A stretch of 64,000 nt of DNA from an uncultured Ectothiorhodospiraceae bacterium (GTDB lineage Bacteria; Pseudomonadota; Gammaproteobacteria; UBA9214): the NCBI GenBank assembly GCA_964564245.1, contig CAZMAK010000001.1:48989-112988 (forward strand), read 5' to 3'. Numbering within the stretch: the stretch's first letter is position 1; every line of letters begins with the position of its first letter. The notes under the pieces are model-generated. The model saw only the letters and a list, made by a program, of their open reading frames with translations. It searched no databases and had not been told where the DNA came from. Made by a program: the position numbers and the translations under genes. Positions 1 to 15,419 of this stretch are shown piece by piece.

Positions 1-1
1 G

Positions 2-176
2 TTTCTCGACGGCACCGCGGCGCTGCACCGGCTGAACCCGTTCTTCACGCGCAGTGAGGGCCCCGGGCTGCAACGCACCTATACCTTCGACTACAGCGTC
101 GACGGTTTCGGCCGCCGTACCGGCTGCGTGATCCTGCGCAACCGCCGGATCACCACCGTGTTGCTCGATGGCTGAT
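2..176 (+). CDS. 3' end of a gene of unknown function (partial; start is before the window)
   Basis: Open frame from the window edge ending at TGA 174-176. The ATGGCTGA overlap with the next ORF start at 168 suggests translational coupling. Confidence 0.3.
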
Positions 177-536
177 ACCCCGCTTTCGGTGGATGAATTC
201 CGTGCCGGACTGGCTGACCGCGGGGAGGACTACCAGCTGCTCGGGCGACACGGGGATGACGAGGTCCGCATCCGCTTTACCGGCACCTTCGAGGGTGCAG
301 ACATCCTCTGGGATGCCACGCTACGGGCACAGGGCAAACACCACCCGGGCAGGCAGTTCATCGACATTGCCGGAAGCGGGCATCCACTGCGGCGTATCGT
401 GGTCGGGCTGAACGTGGACACCCTCGACCGGGCGACCCTGCTCAAAACAATCATCATGGTCAGGAACTACAAACGGCTGCATACCGGGCGCCACGAGTTC
501 GGCAAGCCGGGTGATCGGGACGCCACGCTGTTATAA
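168..536 (+). CDS. hypothetical protein (122 aa)
   Basis: ORF track. The ATG overlaps the upstream stop. No recognisable motif. Confidence 0.4.
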   Translation: MADTPLSVDEFRAGLADRGEDYQLLGRHGDDEVRIRFTGTFEGADILWDATLRAQGKHHPGRQFIDIAGSGHPLRRIVVGLNVDTLDRATLLKTIIMVRNYKRLHTGRHEFGKPGDRDATLL

Positions 537-569
537 TCCCCCTCAGCCGGACCATCCCAGGAATGCAGC

Positions 570-809
570 ATGCCCTATTACATCTACATCGTGACCAGCA
601 ACTTGTCATCGGCATCGAAGTCGGTCACCCGGGTCAGCGAGTTTGACAGCTTCAAGCAGGCAAAATCCGAAGTCAGGCGACTGCGTACGGAACAGCCACT
701 GGCGGATAACCAGATCTACAAGGTCATGTTCGCGGATGATGAGGCCGAGGCGGAAAAGAAACTCAGGGAAGTGCGCGAGGAACCCATTGCCAGGGAATGG
801 GAAAAATAG
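570..809 (+). CDS. small hypothetical protein (79 aa) with a highly charged C-terminal half
   Basis: ORF track. 33-nt gap after the previous gene, same strand. KE-rich helix-like C-terminus. Confidence 0.4.
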   Translation: MPYYIYIVTSNLSSASKSVTRVSEFDSFKQAKSEVRRLRTEQPLADNQIYKVMFADDEAEAEKKLREVREEPIAREWEK

Positions 810-821
810 CATCCGGCGACC

Positions 822-1286
822 ATGGACGAGCAGCAGTACAAGACCACCTATCTGGCCGTCAATGAACGGCGCTGCGTATTTGAAAAGGCGATCAGTTCAC
901 GACGCAGCACGTGCAGCAAGTCGGTGCGTTTCCACATTGCGGACCGGGAAGGGATTTCCTGCAAATCCGCCGCGGGCAACGCGCTGTGCACGGAATTGCT
1001 GAGCCTGATGCGCAGCAATGCCCGGTTTGCCCTGCACCTGACGCATGCCGAGGGACCGTTGCCGCATGCCAAGGAGATCCGGGTTCAGACGGGTGGCATG
1101 CTGGGGCTGCAGTCGGTCCTGTATCCCGACCGGCAGGGGCTGACGGATGTCGATGACATCATCGGCCTGATCGATGCCGGCCTGCAACGCTACAGCAGCC
1201 TGGAACGGTTCCCCTTCGAGCAGATCGTCCAGAACATCGTGCACTTCGAGGGCCGCCGGAAACACGGCAGCCGCGACGAGGACTGA
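822..1286 (+). CDS. hypothetical protein (154 aa) with four Cys
   Basis: ORF track. 12-nt gap after the previous gene. Fourth member of a co-directional cluster of unknown genes. Confidence 0.4.
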   Translation: MDEQQYKTTYLAVNERRCVFEKAISSRRSTCSKSVRFHIADREGISCKSAAGNALCTELLSLMRSNARFALHLTHAEGPLPHAKEIRVQTGGMLGLQSVLYPDRQGLTDVDDIIGLIDAGLQRYSSLERFPFEQIVQNIVHFEGRRKHGSRDED

Positions 1287-1305
1287 TCGGGCCGCTCCGG
1301 CGCCG

Positions 1306-1980
1306 TCACTTGCCGCCCAGGAATATCGTGTCACTGACCACCGGACTGAGCGTTTCGACCACGGCATCGTTCAGCGTGGAATGCCGACGCACCTGGAAAT
1401 AGACGCGCTTGGTGCCGCTGCCGGGACTCAGCACGAATGGGGACGAGGCTGTGAAGTCCTGCCAGCTGGCATCACTGAAATCGGCGTGCTCGCTGGCACG
1501 GTACTGGGTCACCTTGCCGGACACGGAGGCATCTAGCGTCACCTTGCCTGACCCGGTCCGGGCCGCACCCCGGTTGATCACGAAATGCGTGACCTGCAAC
1601 CCGCCATGCCGCTGCGCGCTCGCCGTGCCTGACGTGCTGCAGACCGGTCCGCCACCACCACCGGTCAGTGAAAGCACCAGCATGCGACTGGTACTGGATG
1701 TGACCAGTCGTTCCTGTTCCGATTTGTAACCGTCCCTGGACGCGGTGACCAGTAACTCTGCACGCGGCAGGGATTCAAACACGACGTACCCGTTGGCATC
1801 CGTGACCTTGCCCCCGAACTGGTCAATCCGCGCCTGTGTCCCCAGGCAGACCGAGACCCCGGCCATGGGCTTGCTTGCACCCCGCTCAAACACACGCACC
1901 CGCAGATCCGCTGCCTGGACTGCCTGCAGCGCAGCGAAGTACAGCAGTACCGCCGACATCACACACCCTAGCCGTTTCAT
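1306..1980 (-). CDS. secreted protein with a carboxypeptidase-regulatory-like (transthyretin-like) beta-sandwich domain
   Basis: Signal peptide MKRLGCVMSAVLLYFAALQAVQA. Segment DLRVRVFERG...GVSVCLG...TDANGYVVFESL is typical of CarbopepD_reg-like domains. Start chosen at MKRL inside the track ORF. Confidence 0.5.
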   Translation of the reverse strand: MKRLGCVMSAVLLYFAALQAVQAADLRVRVFERGASKPMAGVSVCLGTQARIDQFGGKVTDANGYVVFESLPRAELLVTASRDGYKSEQERLVTSSTSRMLVLSLTGGGGGPVCSTSGTASAQRHGGLQVTHFVINRGAARTGSGKVTLDASVSGKVTQYRASEHADFSDASWQDFTASSPFVLSPGSGTKRVYFQVRRHSTLNDAVVETLSPVVSDTIFLGGK

Positions 1981-2110
1981 AGACACACCCCGCCGTGATA
2001 GGTCACACATTCACCGGTCATTACCGGGAACCGGTTCATTAAACATCCATCGGCATCAATAACAGAATATTGACAGAATTACCCGGACTGTCCGCACATT
2101 CCCCCGGCAT

Positions 2111-2668
2111 TCAGTCCCCCGTGCCCACCGGCGGCCGCGCTGCCAGTTCCAGCAGGACCTTGCGCAGGTCCGCTTCCAGGACCGGGAAACTCAACGCGTG
2201 GTGGACCGGGAGCCGGTCACGCAACTTGTTGAACGGAGAACTGAATTCTTCCTCGTAGAATACGATCACCCGGGTGCCGGGTAAACGTTGCACCACCGCC
2301 AGCAGGGACTCCAGGCTACTGGTCCGGTCGCGGAAATCGGACTGAAAGTTGTATTCCGCCACGATTACGTCGGGACAGCGCCGTCTGATCCCGGCGATGG
2401 CCTTGCGCATGCGCGTCTCGACGATCACCTCATAGCCGAGGCTTTCGTAGACCGGCCGGAAATTCGGATATCCACCCAGTTCGATGATGGAAAGCAGGAG
2501 TTTCTGTCCCGGTTGATCGCCCACGCTGCCGTCTCGAATCAGTGCGCGGCGTGCCGCCGGCAGGACGAATCCGTCGCCGGCCATGCCCTGGCGAACCGTG
2601 CAGATGCACCTGCCCGGACCCGGCCAGGCGCTCCGCCGTCCACTGCCTGCCGGAAATGGATCGGACAC
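2111..2668 (-). CDS. CheY-like pseudo-receiver domain protein (non-canonical)
   Basis: Alternating beta/alpha pattern: LLLSIIE, YEVIVE, DVIVAEYNF, RVIVFYEE. The phospho-acceptor Asp position holds Glu. GTG start per track; alternative ATG (MAGDGF) near 2584. Confidence 0.3.
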   Translation of the reverse strand: MSDPFPAGSGRRSAWPGPGRCICTVRQGMAGDGFVLPAARRALIRDGSVGDQPGQKLLLSIIELGGYPNFRPVYESLGYEVIVETRMRKAIAGIRRRCPDVIVAEYNFQSDFRDRTSSLESLLAVVQRLPGTRVIVFYEEEFSSPFNKLRDRLPVHHALSFPVLEADLRKVLLELAARPPVGTGD

Positions 2669-2679
2669 ATCCCGTCAAG

Positions 2680-2862
2680 ACACTGACGATATATATCTAT
2701 CCGATTGTATTTATTTAAAAATATTTTCATCTCCATATTTTTTAATATTTTATTAATTTAGATATTGCTTATTTAAGCGTTTGCTTATATATTTATTACT
2801 GTCCTTGCTGACAACACAAATTCCAACCAACTCATACACAAACTGACTGACAGGAGAACGAC
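2680..2862 (+). promoter_or_regulatory. AT-rich promoter island upstream of the Gly/Tyr-repeat protein gene
   Basis: About 180 bp of AT-rich sequence (tatatatctat...atttatttaaaaatatttt...) in an otherwise GC-rich window. RBS CAGGAG 7 nt before the ATG at 2863. Exact -35/-10 not assignable. Confidence 0.4.
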
Positions 2863-3204
2863 ATGAAGACTATCGCAACAGTAATTACGGCCGCCACTCT
2901 GGCAATCGCCTCTACCGCCGCTTCCGCCTGGGGCTGGGGTCCTTACGGCAACAACGGTTACAACAACAACGGCTGGGGCGACGGCTGGGGCGACGGCGAC
3001 GTCGACGGCGGCTTTAACATGAACTTCAGCGGGCACGGTAGCGGTCGTGGCTACGGTCGTGGCTACGGTCGTGGCTACAACAGCTACTACGATGGTTATG
3101 CCCCCTACGGCTATGCCCCCTACGGCTACGCCCCTTACGGCTATGCCCCGGCTCCCGCTCCGGTCGCCCCGGCTGCCCCGGCTACCGACACGACGACCAG
3201 GTAA
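2863..3204 (+). CDS. secreted Gly/Tyr-rich tandem-repeat protein, sulfur-globule-envelope-protein-like
   Basis: Signal peptide [22 protein letters not shown]. Mature part is low-complexity: (GYGR)x3, (YAPYG)x4, GWGDG repeats, Pro/Ala tail. Has RBS, AT-rich promoter and intrinsic terminator. Size and composition match Sgp proteins of purple sulfur bacteria. Functional call is an inference. Confidence 0.55.
3043..3078 (+). repeat. 3 x 12-nt tandem repeat (ggtcgtggctac) encoding (GRGY)3
   Basis: Read directly in the sequence, in frame with the sgp-like ORF. Confidence 0.85.
3097..3150 (+). repeat. 3.5 x 15-nt tandem repeat (tatgccccctacggc) encoding (YAPYG)n
   Basis: Read directly in the sequence, with minor third-position variation. 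Confidence 0.85.
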
Positions 3205-3232
3205 CACGGTCTGTCAACCCGGTAAGGCCGGA

Positions 3233-3263
3233 CGGGGGGACCAGCAGGTCCCCCCGTGTTTTT
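3233..3263 (+). terminator. rho-independent terminator of the sgp-like gene
   Basis: 10-bp GC stem cggggggacc/ggtcccccc(g) with a 4-nt loop, followed by gtTTTTTat. Lies 29 nt after the TAA at 3202-3204. Confidence 0.65.
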
Positions 3264-3289
3264 ATCTGCGGGAAGAACCGGTACGGACC

Positions 3290-3622
3290 CTACTCGGGTG
3301 GCATGTCGGTCAGGTTGGTCTGACAAAGCACCCCGCGCATGGTGCCGATCAGGTCAAGCAGCTTGTCGTTGCTGACACTGTAGTAGATCCGGTTGGCGTC
3401 ACGGCGTGAACGAACGATGTTCTTGTTGCGCAACTGGTCCAGGTGCTGGGAGACATTGCTTTGTGAGGTACCGATCTTCTCGACGATCTCACCCACGGAC
3501 ATCTCCTGGTTACCCAGGGTGCAGAGGATCTTCCAGCGCAGTGGATGTCCCATCGCCTTGAGGGCTTCAGCAGTGAGTGTGATATCCTCTTCCGGCAGGT
3601 TTTCTTCGATGTCCGCCATCAA
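3290..3622 (-). CDS. ArsR/SmtB-family HTH transcriptional regulator (two-Cys, SqrR/BigR-like arrangement)
   Basis: HTH segment MSVGEIVEKIGTSQSNVSQHLDQLRNKNIV is typical of ArsR. Cys in alpha2 (KILCTL) and near the C-terminus (GVLCQT). RBS AGGAG 6 nt upstream of the ATG. Confidence 0.8.
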   Translation of the reverse strand: MMADIEENLPEEDITLTAEALKAMGHPLRWKILCTLGNQEMSVGEIVEKIGTSQSNVSQHLDQLRNKNIVRSRRDANRIYYSVSNDKLLDLIGTMRGVLCQTNLTDMPPE

Positions 3623-3695
3623 TTGCTCCTGGTCATGCTGTTCCTAGTGTACGATCTGTCCCTCGACCTGCAAACCGTGACCCTCCCTGGCCGGT

Positions 3696-4547
3696 TCAGC
3701 AGGACTCCATACGAGTATACCCCGTCATATCCTTTGCAATGCAGATTATGTCCGTGATTACACCGTTCTCATCCTTGATCGCGGTACGGGAAAACAGGAT
3801 CGGCACCCGGCGCTGGTCCTTGGCGATAAAGCTTGCCTCGATGCTGCTGATGGTACCGGTCCGGATCAGCGCCTCCAGCCAGGTACCCATGAATGCATTG
3901 GCCCGCTCGGCCTCTTCCTCTTCGAACACGTCACCGATCGCCATGCCCAGGAGCTCGCTCTCCGGGTAATCCAGCAGGTGGCAGGTGCTCGGATTGACGG
4001 CGGTGATTTTTCCTACGGGGTCAAGCACCAGCAACGCCTCGCCCATGTTGCTGATGATCTTTTCCAGGTAGGTACGCGCCTCGCGCAGCTCACGGGTCCG
4101 CTCCTCGACCAGCGCCTCGAGCCGCGTGTTGAGTTCGCGCTCCTTCTCGATCAGCCGCAGGTAGGTGCTGATCTTGTTGATGAGCTGGTTGTCGTCGATC
4201 GGCTTCAGCAGGTAGTCGGCGGCACCGACTTCATAGCCCTTCTGCTGGAATTCATCGGTCTTGTAGGCCGCGGTAAGAAAGATGATCGGGATATCCCGGG
4301 TTTTCTGGCGTACCTTGAGCATGGAGGCCGTCTGGAAGCCATCCATCTCCGGCATCTGTACATCCAGCACGATCAGGTCGATGCGGGGATTGTGCAGCGC
4401 GATGTCCAGTGCGGCCTGCCCGGAATTCGCCTCCAGCACCTCGACGTCCATGTAGCGGTTGATCAGCGCCCGCAGTGTAAACAGGTTGTTCTCGATATCA
4501 TCGACGATCAGGATCCGAAAACCGGCGTAACGTTTCCTGTCTCCCAT
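3696..4547 (-). CDS. response regulator, receiver plus PAS domain
   Basis: ILIVDD...DLIVLDVQMPEMDG...IIFLTA receiver motifs. C-terminal PAS-like region. Stop/start overlap with the upstream kinase. Confidence 0.8.
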   Translation of the reverse strand: MGDRKRYAGFRILIVDDIENNLFTLRALINRYMDVEVLEANSGQAALDIALHNPRIDLIVLDVQMPEMDGFQTASMLKVRQKTRDIPIIFLTAAYKTDEFQQKGYEVGAADYLLKPIDDNQLINKISTYLRLIEKERELNTRLEALVEERTRELREARTYLEKIISNMGEALLVLDPVGKITAVNPSTCHLLDYPESELLGMAIGDVFEEEEAERANAFMGTWLEALIRTGTISSIEASFIAKDQRRVPILFSRTAIKDENGVITDIICIAKDMTGYTRMESC

Positions 4548-6898
4548 CAGATTTCCCCGCTGCTGTTGCCGGTGCCGAGATAGCGGTCCAGCAGTGATTT
4601 CAGTTCTGTTGTGTCAAGCGGCTTGATGACGCAGTCGTTGGCGCCGGATTCCCTGCACATGCGCAGATCCCTTTCGTCTCCCACGGCGGTCAGTGCGATG
4701 ATCGGCAGATTCTGCAGCTGCGGCTGCCCGCGGATACGCCGGATGGTTTCGTAGCCATCCATGCCGGGCATCATTATATCCATAAACACCAGGCTGAATT
4801 CACCGTCGGTGGACAGTGTTTCCAGCGCCTCCGGGCCATCGCCGGCGGCCATGACCTGCAGGTTCCAGCCCTCCAGCAACGGCGTCAGGGCCAGCAGGTT
4901 ACGCACATCATCGTCGACCAGCAATACCCGTGCCGCGCCGTAATCGGCCGCGGGAATCGCCTGTTCCGCCGGCTTGCCGGGACGGACCGCCGGGAGCGGC
5001 CCGGCCGGCATGTCATTCGTATCGGCGGGCATCTCGGCAGGCAGGTACAGGGTGAAACTCGATCCGGTACCGGGTGTGCTCTCTGCGCGGATGTCACCGC
5101 CGAGCAACCAGGCCAGTTCACGGCTGATCGTCAGCCCCAGCCCGGTGCCGCCAAAGCGCCGGCTGGTCGAGCCGTCCGCCTGCTTGAAGGCCTCGAACAC
5201 CAGGTCGAGCTTGTCCGGGGCGATGCCGATCCCGGTATCCGTGACCCGGATACACACCGGGTAACTGATGCCACCCGCCGATTCCTCGCCCAGCAGCTCG
5301 AAACGGATGCCGCCATGGCTGGTGAACTTGACCGCATTCGACAGAAAATTGATGAGGATCTGGCGGATTTTCTCGCCATCGCTGATGACCGTCTCCGGGG
5401 CCGCGGGATCCACCGTGAGTTGCAGGGTCAGCCGCTTTTCATCCAGTTGCGGCCGCATCAGGTCCTGCACATGATCCAGCAAGCTGCGCAACTGCACCGG
5501 CTCCCTGACCAGGGTCATCTGCCGGGCCTCCACGCGGGACAGGTCCAGGATATTGTCGATGAGCGCCTTCAGGTCGGTACCGGCGTCATGGATGACCCGC
5601 GCCTGGCGGACCTTGTCCTCCGGCAGATTTCCTTCCGCGAGCATCTTGGAAAGCAGCAGGATGGAATTCAGCGGGGTGCGTAACTCGTGACTGACGTTGG
5701 CCAGGAATTCCGACTTGTAGCGATTCGATTCCTCGAGCTCGGCGGCGTAGTCATGCAGGGCACGGGTGTTGGCTGCGTGGGTTGCGGCCAGCCGCGTCAG
5801 GTTCTGTCCCAGTTCCTGCAATTCCCGCGGCTGGGACCAGGCGAACACCACGCCCTCGTCCCGCTCCAGCACCCGGGCGATCCGGTCGGTCAGTTCCTGT
5901 CCCAGACGCTCGATCCTGACCGCGATCAGCCGGGCCACCACGAACACCACCACCAGCAGGCCGACCACGATCAGCACGACACGCAGTTCCACCGCACGCT
6001 GCAGGGTGGCCAGTGGCGACGCGTCCACGCTGCGCCCGACCCAGAGCGTGCCGTAGTCCTGCGTATAGAACAGGGGCACCCATAACACCTGCTGGTTGCC
6101 GTATTCCCACAGGCCCAGTTCCCCCTTGCTGAACAGCTGCTGCAGACCCTGGAAGTCATCGAATGCGGAACTGCGCCGGGTCTCACCGTTCGCCGAGGGC
6201 AGGTACTGGCCGTCTCCGAGCACCCAGTAATTGCCCCGGTAGGCACTGGCCAGCCCGCCCAGGTCGAGATACACGATGACCGTGCCGCGCGGCTCGGGCA
6301 TCTCGCCCGATTCCGTGGGCATGGCCGGTATCATGACCGGGCTGATCAGGCTCATCTGCATGAACCGGTTTGGCGCGGTCACGCTGGCACCGCGGTCAAA
6401 CATGATCGGCCCGTTCATGACGGCGCCCGGACGCAGGGTCTTGCTGGCCTCGAGCAGTTCCGGGTTGATGGCCGCGTGCTTTTTCTTCCGGACCTCCATG
6501 CGCCCCGTGCTCTTGTTGCGATCCAGCCAGAACTCCGGGCTCCCGTCGGTCCTGAGAAACAGGATCTGCGTTACGTCCAGCTGGTCACTCAACACCTGGT
6601 TCACCCAGTTCACGTACGCTTTCCGGGAAGCATCGAGTTCCTGCTGATTCTGTTTCGACGTGGTGGTGCGCAACAACCCGGGCTCAGGCATCTTGGCAAG
6701 CAGTCTTGCCGTCTCGTGACGCCGCGCAAGGTGCTGGTCCAGGTCGCTGAACTCGGCGCGCAGGTTCTGCAGGTGTGCCTTGTGATACAGCAATTCGATC
6801 TTGTCAAAGATCATCGGTACATTGATCACGAATGAAACCAGCAGCGGTACCATGCTGAACAGGATCAGGTACAGGGAAATCCGGGTACGCAGCTTCAT
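4547..6898 (-). CDS. hybrid sensor histidine kinase (periplasmic sensor, TM, HisKA, HATPase, C-terminal receiver)
   Basis: H-box SHELRTPLNS. HATPase G-boxes DTGIGI and GGTGLGL. C-terminal VLLVDDD...MDIMMPGMDG receiver. Confidence 0.85.
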   Translation of the reverse strand: MKLRTRISLYLILFSMVPLLVSFVINVPMIFDKIELLYHKAHLQNLRAEFSDLDQHLARRHETARLLAKMPEPGLLRTTTSKQNQQELDASRKAYVNWVNQVLSDQLDVTQILFLRTDGSPEFWLDRNKSTGRMEVRKKKHAAINPELLEASKTLRPGAVMNGPIMFDRGASVTAPNRFMQMSLISPVMIPAMPTESGEMPEPRGTVIVYLDLGGLASAYRGNYWVLGDGQYLPSANGETRRSSAFDDFQGLQQLFSKGELGLWEYGNQQVLWVPLFYTQDYGTLWVGRSVDASPLATLQRAVELRVVLIVVGLLVVVFVVARLIAVRIERLGQELTDRIARVLERDEGVVFAWSQPRELQELGQNLTRLAATHAANTRALHDYAAELEESNRYKSEFLANVSHELRTPLNSILLLSKMLAEGNLPEDKVRQARVIHDAGTDLKALIDNILDLSRVEARQMTLVREPVQLRSLLDHVQDLMRPQLDEKRLTLQLTVDPAAPETVISDGEKIRQILINFLSNAVKFTSHGGIRFELLGEESAGGISYPVCIRVTDTGIGIAPDKLDLVFEAFKQADGSTSRRFGGTGLGLTISRELAWLLGGDIRAESTPGTGSSFTLYLPAEMPADTNDMPAGPLPAVRPGKPAEQAIPAADYGAARVLLVDDDVRNLLALTPLLEGWNLQVMAAGDGPEALETLSTDGEFSLVFMDIMMPGMDGYETIRRIRGQPQLQNLPIIALTAVGDERDLRMCRESGANDCVIKPLDTTELKSLLDRYLGTGNSSGEI

Positions 6899-6998
6899 CC
6901 GTCACCTTCGGGACAGCAATTGCTCATATGACCGCCTGGACCGGCGGACAACACTGTAACACGGGCGGCACGGGGTTCCGCCACTGCCAGGCCGCCCG

Positions 6999-7751
6999 CT
7001 AGTCCAGGTAGCGTGCCTGCCACTCCAGGAACTTGCCATGGGCATAGGCGGCATAGGACTCCGGGTCGGAAAACCGTGCGGGGTCGATGGGATCGTAGAT
7101 ATAGAAGTTCACCCGGTTATTGCGGGTGGTGCTCATATGCCAGATCTTGTGCAGCAGGGTCTGGGGATCGCGCCATTCAAAATCGTCCTGGGACTCGTAG
7201 TGGAGGAATACCGGCAGGATCGGAATGCCGCTACGCAGGGAAATGTCGAACGCCCCGTAACGGAATGACTCGAAGATGCGCCGGCCCTTGCAGCCGCCCT
7301 CCGGATACAGTGCGATGTTCCTGCCGTTGCGCAGTTCACGATCGATTTCCTCCGCCGCGGCATTGCGCGATTCCTTCGACTCACGCTGCACGTAGAGCGA
7401 CCCGGAGGCGGTGCTGATGCGACCGACGATCCACCAGTCCCTGACCTCGATCTTGGCCAGCGAATGCACCGGAAACACCGCCGGTATCCCGATATCCTCG
7501 AACGCCGAGGGATGGTTCGCGATCAGGATGTACTGCTTCGGCAGGCCCTTGCCGGTGTATTTCTGGTGGACCCGCAGATCGACCCCCAGTGCTCGCACGA
7601 AACTGCGCGCCCAGAAGCGGAACAGCGGGAAGTAGCAGGTACCGACCAGCGCCCGCGGCAGCCATGACAGCAGGTACATGAACAGGGTGAACACGGCGAG
7701 CTCCGTCCAGCAGAGGATTCGCCAGGCCAGTCTGGATACGAAACGGATCAC
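6999..7751 (-). CDS. lysophospholipid (1-acyl-glycerol-3-phosphate-type) acyltransferase
   Basis: NHPSAFED (HX4-5D-like) and YPEGG motifs. N-terminal TM segment. Directly downstream of the secretin gene on the same strand. Confidence 0.7.
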   Translation of the reverse strand: MIRFVSRLAWRILCWTELAVFTLFMYLLSWLPRALVGTCYFPLFRFWARSFVRALGVDLRVHQKYTGKGLPKQYILIANHPSAFEDIGIPAVFPVHSLAKIEVRDWWIVGRISTASGSLYVQRESKESRNAAAEEIDRELRNGRNIALYPEGGCKGRRIFESFRYGAFDISLRSGIPILPVFLHYESQDDFEWRDPQTLLHKIWHMSTTRNNRVNFYIYDPIDPARFSDPESYAAYAHGKFLEWQARYLD

Positions 7752-7900
7752 CGCCCCTGCCTGCTCCTGTCGTTACCCGACGCCTGCATCTTAGCAGTCA
7801 CGTACCACACCTTGCCACAGGCGGCACGGGGCCGGCGCCCGGCATGCCGGGCCACGTGCCGGTACCGTACTGTCCCGCACGAAGGTGTTCCAGGCACCGG

Positions 7901-9307
7901 CTAGTACAGTACCCCGCTGTCCGCATCTTTCCCCGGGGCCGCCGTCCTGCTCCGTGTATCGCCCAGCAGACTCTTCAGCGAGTCCTCGATGTAACCGTGA
8001 TTGTTCAGCTCATGGTCGATTTCCCGGGGCCGCTTCTCGAGCTGCTCGGCCGCCGCGGCGACCTTCGGTGCATTTCCGCCGTCCAGCGGGACCTTGTCAT
8101 TATCGATCAGGTAGGGTGTCACCAGCACGATCAGCTCCGAGTTGTCGCTCTTGTGCAGGTCGTTCGAAAACAGCCTGCCGAGCACCGGAATATCGCCAAG
8201 CACCGGCACGCCTTCGCGGTTGCTGTTGTCATTGCGGGTGATCAGGCCGCCGATGAACACCGTCTGCCCGCTTTCAACCAGCATGGAAGTGGTAACCTCC
8301 GCCGTCGTCTGGTTGAGGACGTCCCCGCCGCTGACCTCGGGGTGTATGTTCAGGAAAATCCGCCCCTCCCCGTCCACGGACGGCTTGACCTTCATGATGA
8401 CACCCACTTCCTGGAACTGGACCGAGGTGGTGGTGACGTTGTCGATGGTGGTGGTGACGTTATAACCGAGTCGTTTGCCGATGATGGTTTCCGCCTCCTG
8501 GTCTTCCAGTGCCAGCAGCTTCGGCGTGGACAGGGTGCGGGTGCGGCCGCGCGTACGCAGGCTGTCCAGGAAGGCCTGTACGTTGGGGGTGACATAGTTG
8601 AAGTACAGACCGGGTGAACCCGCGTTCCCCAGACCCTGGGTACCGATCGTGGCGTCACCGGAGCGAAACACCCGGGTCCAGTCCAGGCCCCAGGATTCCT
8701 GGTCGGTCAGCGATACCTCCAGTATCTTCGCCTCGATCAGGATCTGGCGCGGCTGGCGGTCCACTGCGCGGAGCATCCGTTCCACGCGGCCGAGGAAGTA
8801 CGGTGTGTCCTCGACGATCAGCAACCGCCGCTCCGGCAGCGTCGTGATCTGTCCGTAACTCGACAGGTGTGACTTGAGGATCCCGGCCACCACCTCGGGG
8901 TCGGAATACTGCACCTTGTAGGTGCGCACCTCGGTCGGTCCGCCCGGATCGGACTTGCCGGCCTGGTCGCGTTCCACGATGAAGTAACTGCCATTGCGGC
9001 GTTCCACACCGTACCCGGCCGAGGAGGCGATCGAACGGATGGCGGCATCGACCTCCACGCCGTACAGGTTGACGGAAACCTTGCCCTTGACGTTTTCGGA
9101 AAGCAGGATGTTCACGCGCGCGGTACGCGACAGCATCTCCATGACCTCCGCGATGCCCACATTGCGCAGGGTCAGCGTGATCTTGCCGTCATGGTAGATA
9201 TCCTCCGGCGCAGCGCCGTGTGCCGGCAGGGCCAGCAACAGCCACACCACCGGCAGCAACAGCGCCGGCGCGAGCCGGGATCTACCATGTTCCGCTTGTC
9301 TTTGCAT
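7901..9307 (-). CDS. type IV pilus/MSHA-type secretin (GspD/PilQ/MshL family)
   Basis: Signal peptide. Secretin C-domain motifs VPVLGDIPVLGRLF and LIVLVTPYL. Start chosen at MQRQAEHG, with GGAGAGG just upstream. The track ORF extends to 9385. Confidence 0.85.
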   Translation of the reverse strand: MQRQAEHGRSRLAPALLLPVVWLLLALPAHGAAPEDIYHDGKITLTLRNVGIAEVMEMLSRTARVNILLSENVKGKVSVNLYGVEVDAAIRSIASSAGYGVERRNGSYFIVERDQAGKSDPGGPTEVRTYKVQYSDPEVVAGILKSHLSSYGQITTLPERRLLIVEDTPYFLGRVERMLRAVDRQPRQILIEAKILEVSLTDQESWGLDWTRVFRSGDATIGTQGLGNAGSPGLYFNYVTPNVQAFLDSLRTRGRTRTLSTPKLLALEDQEAETIIGKRLGYNVTTTIDNVTTTSVQFQEVGVIMKVKPSVDGEGRIFLNIHPEVSGGDVLNQTTAEVTTSMLVESGQTVFIGGLITRNDNSNREGVPVLGDIPVLGRLFSNDLHKSDNSELIVLVTPYLIDNDKVPLDGGNAPKVAAAAEQLEKRPREIDHELNNHGYIEDSLKSLLGDTRSRTAAPGKDADSGVLY

Positions 9308-9701
9308 CCTCTCCGACCCCGGCCAGCGGCCTGACCCTGATTTCGCGTTGTACCCCGTTGTTATCGAGTACCACCCTGTCTTCATTAACGGCCATCAGCC
9401 GGTAACCATTGATTTCCTCTCCGATACCGACGATCTTCCCGCCGATATTCGCCAGTGAGTGCGGCCCGGCCAGCACAACCCCGCGCAGTTCCATGGAATC
9501 GTTACCGCCACCGGACTTGACACCGCCCCCGGCAGCGGCGGTTTGCGGTGGCACAAACGGGTTGATGTGCAGTTTCGTGTCGGGTTCCGACGCAAACCCG
9601 GCAAACGGCGGCAGCCACAGCGCCAGCAGCAACCCCAACGTGCGCCCGGCGGCCTGCCGGAACCGGTCTCCACGGGGCTGTTTCCCGCTGCGCTCAGTCA
9701 T
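9282..9701 (-). CDS. PilP/MshK-like periplasmic pilus assembly protein
   Basis: Signal peptide LGLLLALWLPPFAGFA. C-terminal beta-rich region GVVLAGPHSLANIGGKIVGIGEEINGYRLMAVNEDRVVL. Position between the PilO-like gene and the secretin. Start ATG at 9701 with GGGAGG RBS. Confidence 0.45.
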   Translation of the reverse strand: MTERSGKQPRGDRFRQAAGRTLGLLLALWLPPFAGFASEPDTKLHINPFVPPQTAAAGGGVKSGGGNDSMELRGVVLAGPHSLANIGGKIVGIGEEINGYRLMAVNEDRVVLDNNGVQREIRVRPLAGVGEDAKTSGTW

Positions 9702-10257
9702 CCTGCGCCTCCCGGTAGGAAACGATCGTGAAGGTGGCGACCACCCGCCGTGCCGTGTCGGCCGGCGGCCCCGCGGCAAGTTTGAACTGCTGGACCACCA
9801 CGTAGCCCAGTTCTTCACGCAAGTCCTGCAACCACTGGTACAGATCGAAGTAATCACCCGAAACCCGCACGTTGAACGTCACTTCCTCGAACACCTGCAC
9901 CTTGTCGCCCAGGCCGGGCGTCACGCTCAGCAGCTCGACATGATTGCGCCAGGAAATCTCCTGTAGCCGGCCGATGACGAAGGACTCCATCTGGTTCTTC
10001 GGCAGGTCGACCATATCCCCGTGCAACTGCCGGTTCAGCGTATCGACGCGGTCCTGCAAGCGGCTCATCTCGCCCTGCAGGGAATCGCCCTTGGCGGCCA
10101 CGCCTTCCAGCAGCCTGAGCGTGGCCAGCGATTCGCGGTAGGCCCTGGCCTGCGGCCACACGACGTAGCTCACCAGCGCGATAACCAGCGTCAGTGCCAG
10201 CGCGGACATCAGCAGCACGACGGTACGGGGCGGGACCCTTTGCAGGATGGCTTCCAT
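9694..10257 (-). CDS. PilO/MshJ-like inner-membrane pilus assembly protein
   Basis: Single N-terminal TM, coiled-coil, C-terminal beta domain. Gene order M-N-O-P-secretin. Confidence 0.55.
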   Translation of the reverse strand: MEAILQRVPPRTVVLLMSALALTLVIALVSYVVWPQARAYRESLATLRLLEGVAAKGDSLQGEMSRLQDRVDTLNRQLHGDMVDLPKNQMESFVIGRLQEISWRNHVELLSVTPGLGDKVQVFEEVTFNVRVSGDYFDLYQWLQDLREELGYVVVQQFKLAAGPPADTARRVVATFTIVSYREAQDD

Positions 10258-10907
10258 CAGTCTTTCGTCTCGTGCGTATTGACGGTCACGGCGAGATTGA
10301 AATCCACAAACTGGGTCCTGTCGACCAGCGTGGTATTGATGATCCGCACATCCTGGATCTCCGGCTGCCGGTACATGCGCCTGACGAATTCCGACAGCGC
10401 GGAGTAGTCTTTCGCCTGGCCATGGATCTGCATCCGCGTCTCGATCTTCCAGGCCTCGTTGCTCTGCTTGCCATCGGTGGCCGGAATGACGATGAAATAG
10501 CCGTTGCTGGCCGTCTCCGGCCTGTGCTCGACCACGCTCCCGGCCCGGTTGAAATCCCAGGACAGGAACCAGACATCGCCTTCCACCATGGCCCGGTCGA
10601 CCGCCTCGAACATGGCGGAGGCCACCGCGCCTCCGCGCAGCCCGCGCAGCAGCACCAGCCGGCTTTCCAGTTCGGCGCGTTTCCGGTCCAGCTGCGTGAA
10701 CCGCTCGCGCTGTTGCGCCGACACCGCCTGGCGCGCCTGCAGGCCGGCGATCAACCGTCCGGTCCTGATCGCCTGGTAATGCAGCACGCCCAGTGCCAGC
10801 AGCAGGACGACCACCGCCAGTGCGACCGCCACGCCAATATTGAGCGCCTTGCCCTGCAGCCAGATACGACTGCGATAGTCGGCGGGTATCAGGTCGATTT
10901 CAGCCAT
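10257..10907 (-). CDS. PilN-like inner-membrane pilus assembly protein
   Basis: N-terminal IDLIP motif (like the INLLP of PilN), then a TM and a coiled-coil. 8-nt overlap with the PilM-like gene. Confidence 0.6.
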   Translation of the reverse strand: MAEIDLIPADYRSRIWLQGKALNIGVAVALAVVVLLLALGVLHYQAIRTGRLIAGLQARQAVSAQQRERFTQLDRKRAELESRLVLLRGLRGGAVASAMFEAVDRAMVEGDVWFLSWDFNRAGSVVEHRPETASNGYFIVIPATDGKQSNEAWKIETRMQIHGQAKDYSALSEFVRRMYRQPEIQDVRIINTTLVDRTQFVDFNLAVTVNTHETKD

Positions 10908-12036
10908 TTTCGATCAGCCCGTTCATGGCCAGACCGGTGGCAATGGCGATCTCGGGGGAAGGCATGGCAACCGTCACCGGCTGCCTGCCGGCCGTCCGGC
11001 AAAACACCTGCAGCGGATTCGGAATGGTCTGGACCTCGAGCCTGATCAGCGAATTCAGCAGCGCGTCCACGCCGCGCCAGCGCGCCAGGCTGCCCAGCAG
11101 GTAGATACGGCCGATCGGTTCACCGCGTGTCTGTGAGGCGGCGTAGATCAGGGTGCGATTGATCTCCTCGGCGAGCTTGAGAAAATCCGGCTTGAGGATT
11201 TCCTGCAGTGTCACGGAAGTCTCGCGGTCGATCGTGCCGTCTTCACCGGCCCCGCCCTTTACCTGCGGGTCGAGGCTGTTGCCGGCAACCAGCCGCCGCA
11301 CCGGCTCGGTCTCCATGTCCAGCGCTTTGGCCACATGATCCAGCAAGCGGTTCTCGCCGAACCGGACCTCCTGGTCGAACAGCAGGCGCGCACCGGAAAT
11401 CACCGTCATGAAGCTCGACTCACGGCCGAAATTGATCGCCAGCACGTTCTGGTGCTCGCCGCGTTCCCCCATTGCACTGACCAGGCGGCGAATGGCGGAC
11501 GGCCCGATTTCCAGGTGTTGCGTCTCGAGTCCGCTCTTGCGCAGCAGCTCGAGATAGCGGATGACGCGTTCACGCGGGGCGACTGCGACGATCGCCAGGC
11601 GCTCCTCCATACCCTGTTCCGGACGCACCGGCAGATAATCGATCACGTAGTCACTCAGTTCGCCATCGAGCCGCTCCTCCAGAAGCTTCAGGATCGAGAC
11701 GTCGTCCGAGCCGCCCTCGGTAACCGTGTAGGACAGCGGCATGATTTTCACGTCGGAAGACGGCAGTGTCGTGACGATGGCCCGTCCGCGGAACGCATCC
11801 TGCCGCAGTGCCTCGCGCACCAGCGACCGGAACCGTTTCGGCTCGGCCAGCAGATCGTCCAGCGTCCCGGTATAGGGCAGCGAGGCGCTGGCGTGCAGGG
11901 AGATCTCGCCGCTGTGGTCCACGGCAAGCTGCACCAGGTGCAGGGCATGCAGTGCGCACTCCACGCCGATGAACCCGGTACGCCGCGCATTGGCGCCCGG
12001 GCGAACACGGTGCAGGACTTCTGCCAGCGCAGCCAT
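10900..12036 (-). CDS. PilM/MshI-like actin-fold cytoplasmic pilus assembly protein
   Basis: About 380 aa, the size and first position of pilM in pilMNOPQ-type operons. No TM. Confidence 0.6.
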   Translation of the reverse strand: MAALAEVLHRVRPGANARRTGFIGVECALHALHLVQLAVDHSGEISLHASASLPYTGTLDDLLAEPKRFRSLVREALRQDAFRGRAIVTTLPSSDVKIMPLSYTVTEGGSDDVSILKLLEERLDGELSDYVIDYLPVRPEQGMEERLAIVAVAPRERVIRYLELLRKSGLETQHLEIGPSAIRRLVSAMGERGEHQNVLAINFGRESSFMTVISGARLLFDQEVRFGENRLLDHVAKALDMETEPVRRLVAGNSLDPQVKGGAGEDGTIDRETSVTLQEILKPDFLKLAEEINRTLIYAASQTRGEPIGRIYLLGSLARWRGVDALLNSLIRLEVQTIPNPLQVFCRTAGRQPVTVAMPSPEIAIATGLAMNGLIENG

Positions 12037-14488: not shown

Positions 14489-15419
14489 GGGTCGGACCTG
14501 TTTATCAGACTGATCCTCAAGCAATAAGTGTTCATATTTGGCTAAGGTATGGACCCTAAGCGTCGTTTCCAGGCTAAAAACGCAGTTTCAAGGAGGACAT
14601 GGATGCCTCGTGCACATCGCTATTTCCTGCCAGGCCATATCTGGCACATCACGCATCGCTGCCACAAGCGGCAGTTCCTGCTCAAGTTTGCGAAGGACCG
14701 CAGGGCCTGGGTGTACTGGCTCTATCAGGCACGCAAACGCTTTAACCTGTGCGTACTGAACTATGTTGTGACATCAAACCATATCCATTTGCTGGTTAAG
14801 GACACGGGGCGCGGAGAGATCTCGCGCAGTATGCAGTTGATTGCCGGGCGTGTGGCGCAACAGTTCAACCGACGCAAGGCACGCAAAGGCGCCTACTGGG
14901 AGGATCGCTATCATGCAACCGCCGTGCAGTCGGACGGACATCTGGCAAGGTGCATGGTCTACATCGACCTGAACATGGTCCGGGCCGGGGTGGTGGCACA
15001 TCCAGCGGACTGGGTGCATGCGGGTTACAACGAAATCCAGTCGTTGCCGAAGCGCTACCGCTGCGTCGATGTGGCAGCACTTTCCGCATTACTGGATTTT
15101 ACCGATGCGGATAGCTTGCGCGACGGACTGCGCACGCGAGTGGAACTGGCGCTTGCGAAGGGTAATCTGGAGCGCGACCCAGCGTGGACCATGAGTATCG
15201 CCGTGGGACAGCGCGACTACCTGGACGCGATCGGGCTCGAACTGAAGCTCAGTCATCCGGGGCGGAGGATTGAGGGAGACGCAGATCTATTATGCTTGCG
15301 GGAGGAACCGAGCAGTTATTCGAGCTAAAAAGTGCCAGAAAAGTATGGTCCAAGCTGAGAAATCAGTCGCTCAACCGCATTATGTGATTACTTATCAGGA
15401 TATTGGGAAGGTCCGACCC
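14489..15419 (+). mobile_element. REPtron-like unit: RAYT gene bracketed by inverted REP-like repeats
   Basis: Perfect 11-bp inverted repeat GGGTCGGACCT (14489-14499) / AGGTCCGACCC (15409-15419) flanks the transposase gene. The same core CAGGTCCGAC recurs in the 21-bp repeats at 23726-23747, 23875-23895 and 36807-36827. Confidence 0.5.
14603..15328 (+). CDS. REP-associated tyrosine transposase (RAYT; IS200/IS605-like Y1 HUH transposase)
   Basis: HUH motif NHIHLLV and catalytic-Tyr region GAYWEDRYH. AAGGAGG RBS 6 nt before ATG 14603. The track ORF starts further upstream at 14549. Confidence 0.8.
   Translation: MPRAHRYFLPGHIWHITHRCHKRQFLLKFAKDRRAWVYWLYQARKRFNLCVLNYVVTSNHIHLLVKDTGRGEISRSMQLIAGRVAQQFNRRKARKGAYWEDRYHATAVQSDGHLARCMVYIDLNMVRAGVVAHPADWVHAGYNEIQSLPKRYRCVDVAALSALLDFTDADSLRDGLRTRVELALAKGNLERDPAWTMSIAVGQRDYLDAIGLELKLSHPGRRIEGDADLLCLREEPSSYSS

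Follow-up and report, generated by a model that had tools for sequence, protein, structure and literature searches.

A two-cysteine ArsR-family regulator closes an apparently undescribed histidine kinase/receiver-PAS gene unit in sulfur-storing Gammaproteobacteria

In the current work, we describe a regulatory locus within 64,000 nucleotides of DNA from an uncultured Ectothiorhodospiraceae bacterium (GenBank assembly GCA_964564245.1, contig CAZMAK010000001.1, positions 48,989 to 112,988; this whole stretch is hereafter called the window), at which a hybrid sensor histidine kinase, a receiver-PAS response regulator, and a small ArsR-family protein with two cysteines are encoded one after another. 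Judging from sequence comparison, the double-Cache (dCache) kinase, the receiver-PAS protein, and the two-cysteine ArsR make up an operon of sulfur-storing Gammaproteobacteria that is strictly conserved and, it appears, has not been described before. With moderate confidence, we favor the reading that the ArsR protein is a thiol switch of the persulfide-responsive type that, as the last product of this conserved three-gene unit, either gives the two-component pathway its DNA-binding output or is gated by that pathway.

Literature searches for an arrangement of kinase, receiver-PAS protein, and ArsR found no description of it. A survey by the Dahl group records a related, rhodanese-linked ArsR clade, and the kinase-linked clade is not in it (PMC12423496 supplement). 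The genome paper on Chromatium okenii mentions two arsR family regulators, possibly for H2S-dependent regulation (PMC6374484).

Conservation and layout of the three-gene unit

Three minus-strand genes occupy the interval from position 3290 to 6898 (open reading frame listing and Pfam), so transcription runs from the hybrid kinase (6898 to 4547) through the receiver-PAS gene (4547 to 3696) to arsR (3619 to 3290), which is the terminal gene. An earlier note on this DNA, made from the letters alone, had correctly placed a receiver-PAS regulator and a hybrid kinase on the strand of arsR; it had arsR heading the operon with the other two genes following, and this order proved to be reversed, as both precede arsR, which is last here and in 69 other loci.

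The comparison draws on 89 loci, obtained by looking up three homologs and by scanning a single genome for each GTDB species, and the kinase-linked set was defined as those loci in which the ArsR is at least 62% identical to that of the window and upstream sequence is retained (n = 69, tblastn census). Kinase, receiver-PAS gene, and arsR follow one another in that order on the same strand in all 69, the sole exception encountered being a contig that starts inside arsR. The genes that flank the unit vary widely among loci: in the window's clade, an Nramp or acyltransferase gene lies upstream and sgp, a sulfur globule protein gene, downstream, and elsewhere RND efflux genes, an AFG1 ATPase gene, and others are found. 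Every named host of the unit is a sulfur oxidizer; the list comprises Allochromatium humboldtianum, Thiocapsa roseopersicina, Imhoffiella purpurea, Thiocystis, Halochromatium, Thiohalocapsa, Sedimenticola, Ca. Thiodiazotropha, Ca. Thiosymbion, Thiogranum, Thiohalobacter, and Ectothiorhodospiraceae.

The stop/start overlap seen in the earlier note is real and amounts to a single nucleotide within a TGATG sequence (...ATC TGA TGG GAG...), although the two codons that share it are the kinase stop and the receiver-PAS start, with arsR separated from the receiver-PAS gene by 73 nucleotides. This overlap suggests translational coupling of the kinase and receiver-PAS genes. At the second junction, most lineages have an overlap of 4, 8, or 11 nucleotides or a gap of fewer than 25 between the receiver-PAS gene and arsR, and in the window's clade the gap widens to 57–88 nucleotides. 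The window's version of this gap contains a promoter-like pair, TTGCAG (3673-3668) and TACACT (3651-3646) with a 16-nucleotide spacer, and the pattern TTGCA(A/G)-N16/17-TACACT is kept at the corresponding place across the clade (L001, L010-L016); the element is likely, on this sequence evidence, to be an extra promoter that allows separate expression of arsR in the window's lineage. A terminator scan returned no terminator-like site inside the unit, the 73-nucleotide gap included.

The ArsR reading frame ends in TAG at 3290-3292 and could begin at a TTG at 3622, which would add one Met (110 aa); the ATG at 3619 is the likely start because a ribosome-binding site, AGGAG (3630-3626), lies 6 nucleotides 5' of it. 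The interval upstream of the kinase gene presumably holds the kinase promoter, and relatives carry TGnTAAAGT where the window has its extended -10-like sequence. On the other side of this interval, an acyltransferase gene (PF01553, 6999-7751, minus strand) ends 100 nucleotides 5' of the kinase on the same strand, and it probably lies outside the unit because in related loci it is found nearby but apart from the kinase or in a different orientation.

The cysteine pair of the ArsR protein

The assignment of this protein to the ArsR family, with cysteines in the motifs KILCTL and VLCQT, was confirmed (HTH_5, E=2e-13), and these motifs hold its only two cysteines, C33 and C99, which are 66 residues apart in the 109-aa numbering from ATG 3619. 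The earlier note had likened their positions to those of the persulfide-sensing repressors SqrR and BigR. Alignment with phmmer, and explicitly with MAFFT against the cores of BigR, SqrR, HlyU, YgaV, and NolR, sets C33 and C99 without gaps on the sensing cysteine pair of BigR, SqrR, HlyU, and YgaV; no displacement of either residue from the sensing positions was seen, and the spacing of 66 residues is identical to that in SqrR and BigR. An AlphaFold (AF2) model has the topology α1-α2-α3-α4-β1-β2-α5, with a predicted local distance difference test (pLDDT) score of 72 overall and 78–88 across most of the core, and places C33 within helix 26-35 (α2) and C99 within helix 85-103 (α5). The best Foldseek matches to this model are YgaV, HlyU, NolR, SqrR, and BigR, with a probability of 1.0 for YgaV, HlyU, SqrR, and BigR and TM scores of ~0.7–0.8; by sequence, phmmer against the PDB returns NolR (1e-18), YgaV (5e-16), HlyU (6e-16), BigR (1e-14), and SqrR (2.5e-12).

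Both cysteines are present in 121 of 121 database homologs (at least 70% identity) and in every one of the 69 kinase-linked copies that other genomes supplied, of which 65 match the strict pattern with the exact 66-residue spacing and the remaining four are KIIC or KIVC variants. By the measure of this conservation, the two-cysteine pattern is not a product of chance. In the ArsR superfamily, a persulfide-sensor cluster ("SSN cluster 4") is defined by exactly this α2/α5 cysteine pair, and its members HlyU, SqrR, and BigR form tetrasulfides specifically with persulfides and thereby lose DNA binding (PMC10054925); the function of SoxR and sHdrR depends on conserved cysteines (PMC12423496). The solved structures nearest to the window's ArsR belong to this cluster 4. 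From its sequence, then, the ArsR protein is classed as a two-cysteine regulator of the SqrR/BigR/HlyU/YgaV kind and not as a BigR or SqrR ortholog, and by analogy with these proteins, persulfide chemistry at C33-C99 is likely.

The generic NCBIfam assignment of the protein is "metalloregulator ArsR/SmtB" (90 bits), which would fit a classical sensor of metals or metalloids. The earlier note had excluded an ELCVCD-type metal site, and rightly so: the sequence and alignment contain no CXC in α3 and no His/Asp/Glu ligand set in α5, and no metal transporter is fixed beside the gene, RND pumps being found downstream in a few lineages only. A metal-sensing role, rejected here on the cysteine evidence, is scarcely credible.

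The kinase and receiver-PAS partners

The kinase consists of a first transmembrane helix (residues ~8-30), a periplasmic double-Cache-like domain (~31-305; window 6808-5984), a second transmembrane helix (~306-328), and cytoplasmic HisKA (395-458; His404 codon 5689-5687), HATPase (507-622), and C-terminal receiver (658-770) domains. A Pfam search with the N-terminal sensor domain gave no match. An AlphaFold model of residues 1-338 (pLDDT 80) shows a long N-terminal helix that leads into two PAS-like α/β modules, the whole lying between the two transmembrane helices, and Foldseek matches it to the dCache domains 3lid and 2p7j (E=4e-10) and to many chemoreceptor dCache domains. On the strength of this model, the sensor is a predicted periplasmic dCache domain.

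In the receiver-PAS protein, a receiver (residues 12-126; window 4514-4170) is connected by a coiled linker to a PAS domain (residues 160-275; window 4070-3723). Its conservation exceeds that of the kinase and of ArsR (63–87% identity across orders, tblastn census), and the residues D16, D17, D62, T92, and K115, which include the phospho-acceptor Asp62 (codon 4364-4362), are invariant in 57 of the 63 aligned orthologs, that is, in those with a residue at these columns. His404 of the kinase is invariant in 60 of 60 orthologs. The kinase's own receiver is intact in the window (4589-4927, minus strand; phospho-acceptor Asp706), and across the orthologs its Asp is kept in 35 of 60 and replaced by Ala in 15 and by Asn in 7, a pattern that marks it, by sequence, as a degenerate pseudo-receiver in much of the family. 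The proteins thus carry the HisKA H-box His, the HATPase domain, and the receiver DD/D/T/K residues expected of a two-component system, and lack what a His-Asp-His-Asp phosphorelay needs, as Pfam finds no Hpt domain in the kinase, the receiver-PAS protein, or ArsR and the kinase receiver Asp is so often missing. Because there is no Hpt domain, the kinase receiver Asp is often lost, and the receiver-PAS set is invariant, direct transfer from His404 to Asp62 is the most likely route.

The receiver-PAS protein has no DNA-binding or output domain of its own, and ArsR is the sole DNA-binding protein of the unit (Pfam). For this reason, and because of the fixed gene order and the signs of translational coupling, we propose that the pathway has its output, or integrates its signals, at ArsR.

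Table 1. Coordinates of the features at the locus, in window numbering.
Feature	Position	Strand	Evidence or remark
ArsR/SmtB winged-helix regulator, 109 aa from ATG 3619	3290..3619	-	Pfam HTH_5 E=2e-13
Cys33 codon TGC, helix α2 (KILCTL)	3521..3523	-	Counterpart of SqrR C41, BigR C42, HlyU C38
Cys99 codon TGT, helix α5 (VLCQT)	3323..3325	-	Counterpart of SqrR C107, BigR C108, HlyU C-terminal Cys
Gap of 73 nt between receiver-PAS gene and arsR	3623..3695	-	Promoter-like pair and ribosome-binding site AGGAG inside
Receiver-PAS response regulator, 283 aa	3696..4547	-	Pfam Response_reg 6e-26, PAS_9 4e-12
TGATG junction: kinase stop TGA and receiver-PAS start ATG, one base common	4545..4549	-	Direct sequence reading
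Hybrid sensor histidine kinase of 783 aa, encoded first in the unit	4547..6898	-	Pfam HisKA, HATPase_c, C-terminal receiver
100-nt region 5' of the kinase, after same-strand acyltransferase stop	6899..6998	-	Extended -10-like TGTTACAGT (6961-6953)
sgp, encoding a 113-aa sulfur globule protein with signal peptide and Gly/Tyr-rich repeats	2863..3204	+	PF17228 SGP E=4.5e-19
sgp upstream region	2690..2862	+	Conserved block across L001, L010, L011, L014, L016
Hairpin ACGGGGGGACC-AGCA-GGTCCCCCCGT then T-run GTTTTTAT	3232..3265	+	Inverted-repeat and terminator scans

The sulfur globule gene as candidate target and the wider neighborhood

As the earlier note had stated, arsR sits tail-to-tail with a sulfur globule gene. 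The sgp product scores 69.5 bits against PF17228 (cut-off 26.7) and has an N-terminal signal-like sequence and Gly-Tyr repeats. Between the two genes, 32 nucleotides past the ArsR stop, lies a hairpin that, by its sequence, is an intrinsic terminator for sgp; there is no U-tract on the ArsR strand. The convergence of sgp on arsR recurs in the window's clade (L001-3, L010, L011, L014, L016) and again in Thiogranum (two sgp genes), Thiohalobacter (two), and the HyVt-581 metagenome-assembled genome, where the remaining flanks are different, and it exceeds what is expected for a gene family of few copies per genome. The link between sgp and ArsR that the earlier note had implied is plausible, on slender support: the adjacency recurs in two clades only.

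The DNA upstream of sgp is unusual in composition, as positions 2690-2800 are 84% A+T in a window of ~62% G+C. It contains a conserved promoter-like pair, TTGCTT (2765-2770) and TATATT (2788-2793) with a 17-nucleotide spacer, a palindrome GCTTA-TT-TAAGC (2767-2778) that overlaps the -35 element, and TTTAG at 2757-2761. This palindrome and the region around it are a candidate target site for ArsR, and, of the possible targets nearby, the convergent sgp gene with its conserved and very AT-rich promoter is the strongest candidate. HlyU works at very AT-rich promoters, and the composition of the sgp promoter beside the window's ArsR makes HlyU-style anti-silencing at sgp a lead, and only a lead, by analogy. 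The sgp promoters of Thiogranum and Thiohalobacter have a GCATAT-ATTC-GCATAT direct repeat instead of the window-type block.

Divergent from sgp is a small open reading frame (2111-2668, minus strand), which shares a conserved core of ~137 aa with its counterparts in the window's clade and for which no Pfam, NCBIfam, or PDB match was found; it is followed by a gene for a CarboxypepD_reg-like secreted protein (1306-2010, minus strand), and both travel with sgp in related loci. An Rfam search of positions 1-12000 returned no RNA family. Farther away, positions 7901-30383 hold a dense type IV/MSHA-like pilus block with PilM/N/O/P/Q-like open reading frames, a T2SSE ATPase with MshEN and STAS domains, and T2SSF, together with a 1168-aa CBM96/LDL-repeat protein. 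Cyclic di-GMP signaling genes (GGDEF, GAF-GGDEF-EAL, HDOD) and another histidine kinase gene are interleaved in this block, and an IS200-like Y1 transposase gene lies at 14549-15328 (plus strand, PF01797 E=2e-10).

A rhodanese-linked paralog and related regulators

A second clade of two-cysteine ArsR proteins (L071-L089) is 57–64% identical to the window's ArsR and occurs without kinase or receiver-PAS gene. Its context is arsR-rhodanese-secB-gpsA, the rhodanese being membrane-anchored, with gpmI-envC-ctpA pointing away divergently on the other side, and it corresponds to the Alvin_3027 type of A. vinosum, designated "Rhd" (PMC12423496 Table S1). The paralog has both cysteines and a recognition helix, GTSQSNISQHL, that is nearly the same as that of the kinase-linked ArsR; it differs in carrying Leu at the clade-specific Trp29 of the kinase-linked proteins and in its C-terminal tail. 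The two are found in the same lineages, and Sedimenticola BM503 has both (L023, L076). A conserved block, AGCTTATTATTGTATTAG, lies ~110–130 nucleotides upstream of the conserved core of the paralog's ArsR coding sequence and, from its sequence, may serve the paralog gene itself as operator or promoter.

Among characterized proteins, HlyU (Vibrio) and YgaV (E. coli) share the cysteine pair, the closest recognition helix (SQSxxSQHL), and 37–43% identity with the window's ArsR and are its best structural matches. Unlike it, their genes stand alone, YgaV being paired with the rhodanese YgaP, and no two-component operon is known for either. PhyR-NepR-σEcfG and HptB-HsbR-HsbA are systems in which response regulators without a DNA-binding domain act via a partner protein. 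The present unit resembles them in combining a kinase and a receiver protein with only an interaction domain with a separate transcription factor encoded alongside; it differs in that there is no homology to their partners, and the partner here would be a thiol-switch ArsR repressor.

Weighing the evidence

Several results weigh against the view of ArsR as a persulfide-responsive output of the kinase pathway. The first concern its relation to the known sensors. The protein shares fold, cysteine pair, 66-residue spacing, and absence of a metal site with SqrR (Rhodobacter capsulatus) and BigR (Xylella, Agrobacterium, Acinetobacter), at 36–37% identity over the whole core, but it falls below the cut-off of the BigR equivalog NF040642 of NCBIfam (77.3 bits versus 155). 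Its top sequence match in the PDB is NolR of Sinorhizobium, which has the same fold, lacks both cysteines, and has no known inducer. A NolR-like regulator that binds DNA constitutively and without an inducer, with cysteines of structural importance only, would fit this match (E=1e-18, 44–46% identity) and the recognition helix TSQSNVSQHL, which is of the HlyU/YgaV/NolR type. However, NolR carries Asp instead of Cys at both sites, and in the clade of the window's ArsR both cysteines are invariant in ~190 sequences while adjacent positions vary; we consider this explanation very improbable and reject it on the cysteine evidence, as with the metal sensor.

The genomic context also differs from that of SqrR and BigR. 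No sulfurtransferase, SQR, persulfide dioxygenase, or sulfur-transporter gene, the customary neighbors of characterized members, lies in or beside the unit in the window or the 69 related loci; arsR has no sqr, blh, rhodanese, or transporter gene next to it and is the terminal gene of a kinase/receiver-PAS operon, and the classical sulfurtransferase-type context belongs to the paralog. In the crystal structure of SqrR with DNA, the bases are read by R60, Q61, Q66, and K84 (bioRxiv 10.64898/2026.05.15.721447). These residues align with S52, Q53, Q58, and N76 of the window's ArsR; that is, two of the four base contacts differ (R60 to S, K84 to N), and Q61 and Q66 are conserved.

Searches for an operator gave little. 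The SqrR box ATTC-N8-GAAT (at most 1 mismatch) has 8 matches in the 64 kb against 12 expected and none in the intergenic DNA of the locus, consistent with the replaced base-contact residues. The palindromic operator that the earlier note had proposed to look for nearby was likewise not found, as an inverted-repeat search of four local intergenic regions returned only the sgp terminator and AT-rich self-complementarity. Across 57 loci, no conserved palindrome precedes the first gene of the operon, with the exception of GTTGAC-N13-GTCAAC (variable spacer) in five Thiodiazotropha-group loci; it is absent from the window, and its GTTGAC is the -35 element of the bcp promoter discussed below. The paralog's operator was also considered and rejected as the ArsR operator here: nhmmer finds no match to the block AGCTTATTATTGTATTAG in the window or any kinase-linked locus, despite the near-identical recognition helix. 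A "GCTTAT" common to this block and the sgp promoter was treated as an AT-rich coincidence.

The adjacency of sgp and arsR may go back to one ancestral arrangement. As for the coupling of ArsR to the two-component genes, a contact between the receiver-PAS protein and ArsR is pure inference, and a search of 1.8 billion representatives for a fusion of a receiver-PAS-type PAS domain to a helix-turn-helix domain found none, returning generic multi-PAS proteins and a handful of ortholog clusters. It is possible, though doubtful, that ArsR and the two-component genes are merely co-transcribed, with ArsR autoregulating or serving its own targets and the receiver-PAS protein signaling elsewhere. The lack of any such Rosetta-stone architecture and of a shared operator in the searches made for one agrees with this, as does the wide gap before arsR in the window's clade, whose conserved promoter-like element suggests independent expression. 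What argues for a functional connection is that co-occurrence and order are absolute over the 69 loci and several families while the surroundings change, that stop and start codons overlap in many lineages, and that a receiver-PAS protein without output domain is encoded with a single DNA-binding protein.

Lastly, 26 of ~60 loci (among them L026, L019, L030, L036, L037, L050, L054, L058, and L067) carry a gene for a Bcp/PrxQ-type peroxiredoxin on the strand of the kinase and within ~2 kb upstream of it. The gap between bcp and the kinase is below 70 nucleotides in roughly half of these 26, and the bcp promoter is strongly conserved as GTTGAC(G/C)-N17-CTAAAT or TATCTT. These loci keep alive an explanation in which the ArsR thiol switch responds to peroxide or to oxidative stress in general instead of sulfane sulfur, maybe via a peroxiredoxin relay, and the unit is a redox-stress circuit. 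Nevertheless, there is no bcp gene within the window, HlyU and SqrR do not react with H2O2 in vitro and are persulfide-selective (PMC10054925), and peroxide-sensing ArsR proteins of the RexT type use two α3 cysteines, of which the window's ArsR has none. The restriction of the unit to sulfur oxidizers also suits sulfur better than peroxide, and we regard the peroxide explanation as distinctly unlikely.

Proposed mechanism and significance

In the mechanism that we propose for the thiol-switch output, the reduced ArsR dimer would bind DNA, and sulfane sulfur, as persulfide or polysulfide, would bridge Cys33 and Cys99 within each protomer and so release the DNA, as its homologs suggest. The membrane kinase would sense a ligand through its periplasmic double-Cache domain and autophosphorylate at His404, from which the phosphate would pass, most probably directly, to Asp62 of the receiver-PAS protein. 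ArsR would then be the transcriptional output of the kinase pathway, or be gated by it, and a single promoter set would integrate a ligand signal from the periplasm with the sulfane-sulfur state of the cytoplasm. A more far-reaching version is a three-component switch with two inputs, in which receiver-PAS, once phosphorylated, attaches to the ArsR dimer as anti-repressor or co-repressor, DNA binding depends both on the ligand sensed by the dCache kinase and on the sulfane sulfur sensed by C33-C99, and the whole serves as lineage-wide master control of sulfur globules and sulfur oxidation in Chromatiaceae, Sedimenticolaceae, and symbiotic relatives; we put this forward as a speculation that is unlikely to hold.

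Little is known of how sulfur-storing oxidizers, among them the purple sulfur bacteria and chemosynthetic symbionts that live in clams and worms, turn the genes for sulfur oxidation and globules on and off. The known persulfide-sensing ArsR proteins are one-component repressors encoded beside detoxification genes, whereas here the thiol switch lies within a kinase/receiver-PAS operon that every examined member of these lineages keeps. The three-gene unit is carried by the culturable organisms Thiocapsa roseopersicina DSM 217, Allochromatium humboldtianum, and Imhoffiella purpurea. If the proposed coupling is true, this ArsR would be the first persulfide sensor to serve as the output of a two-component pathway, and a concrete candidate regulator would be named for the sulfur globule proteins.

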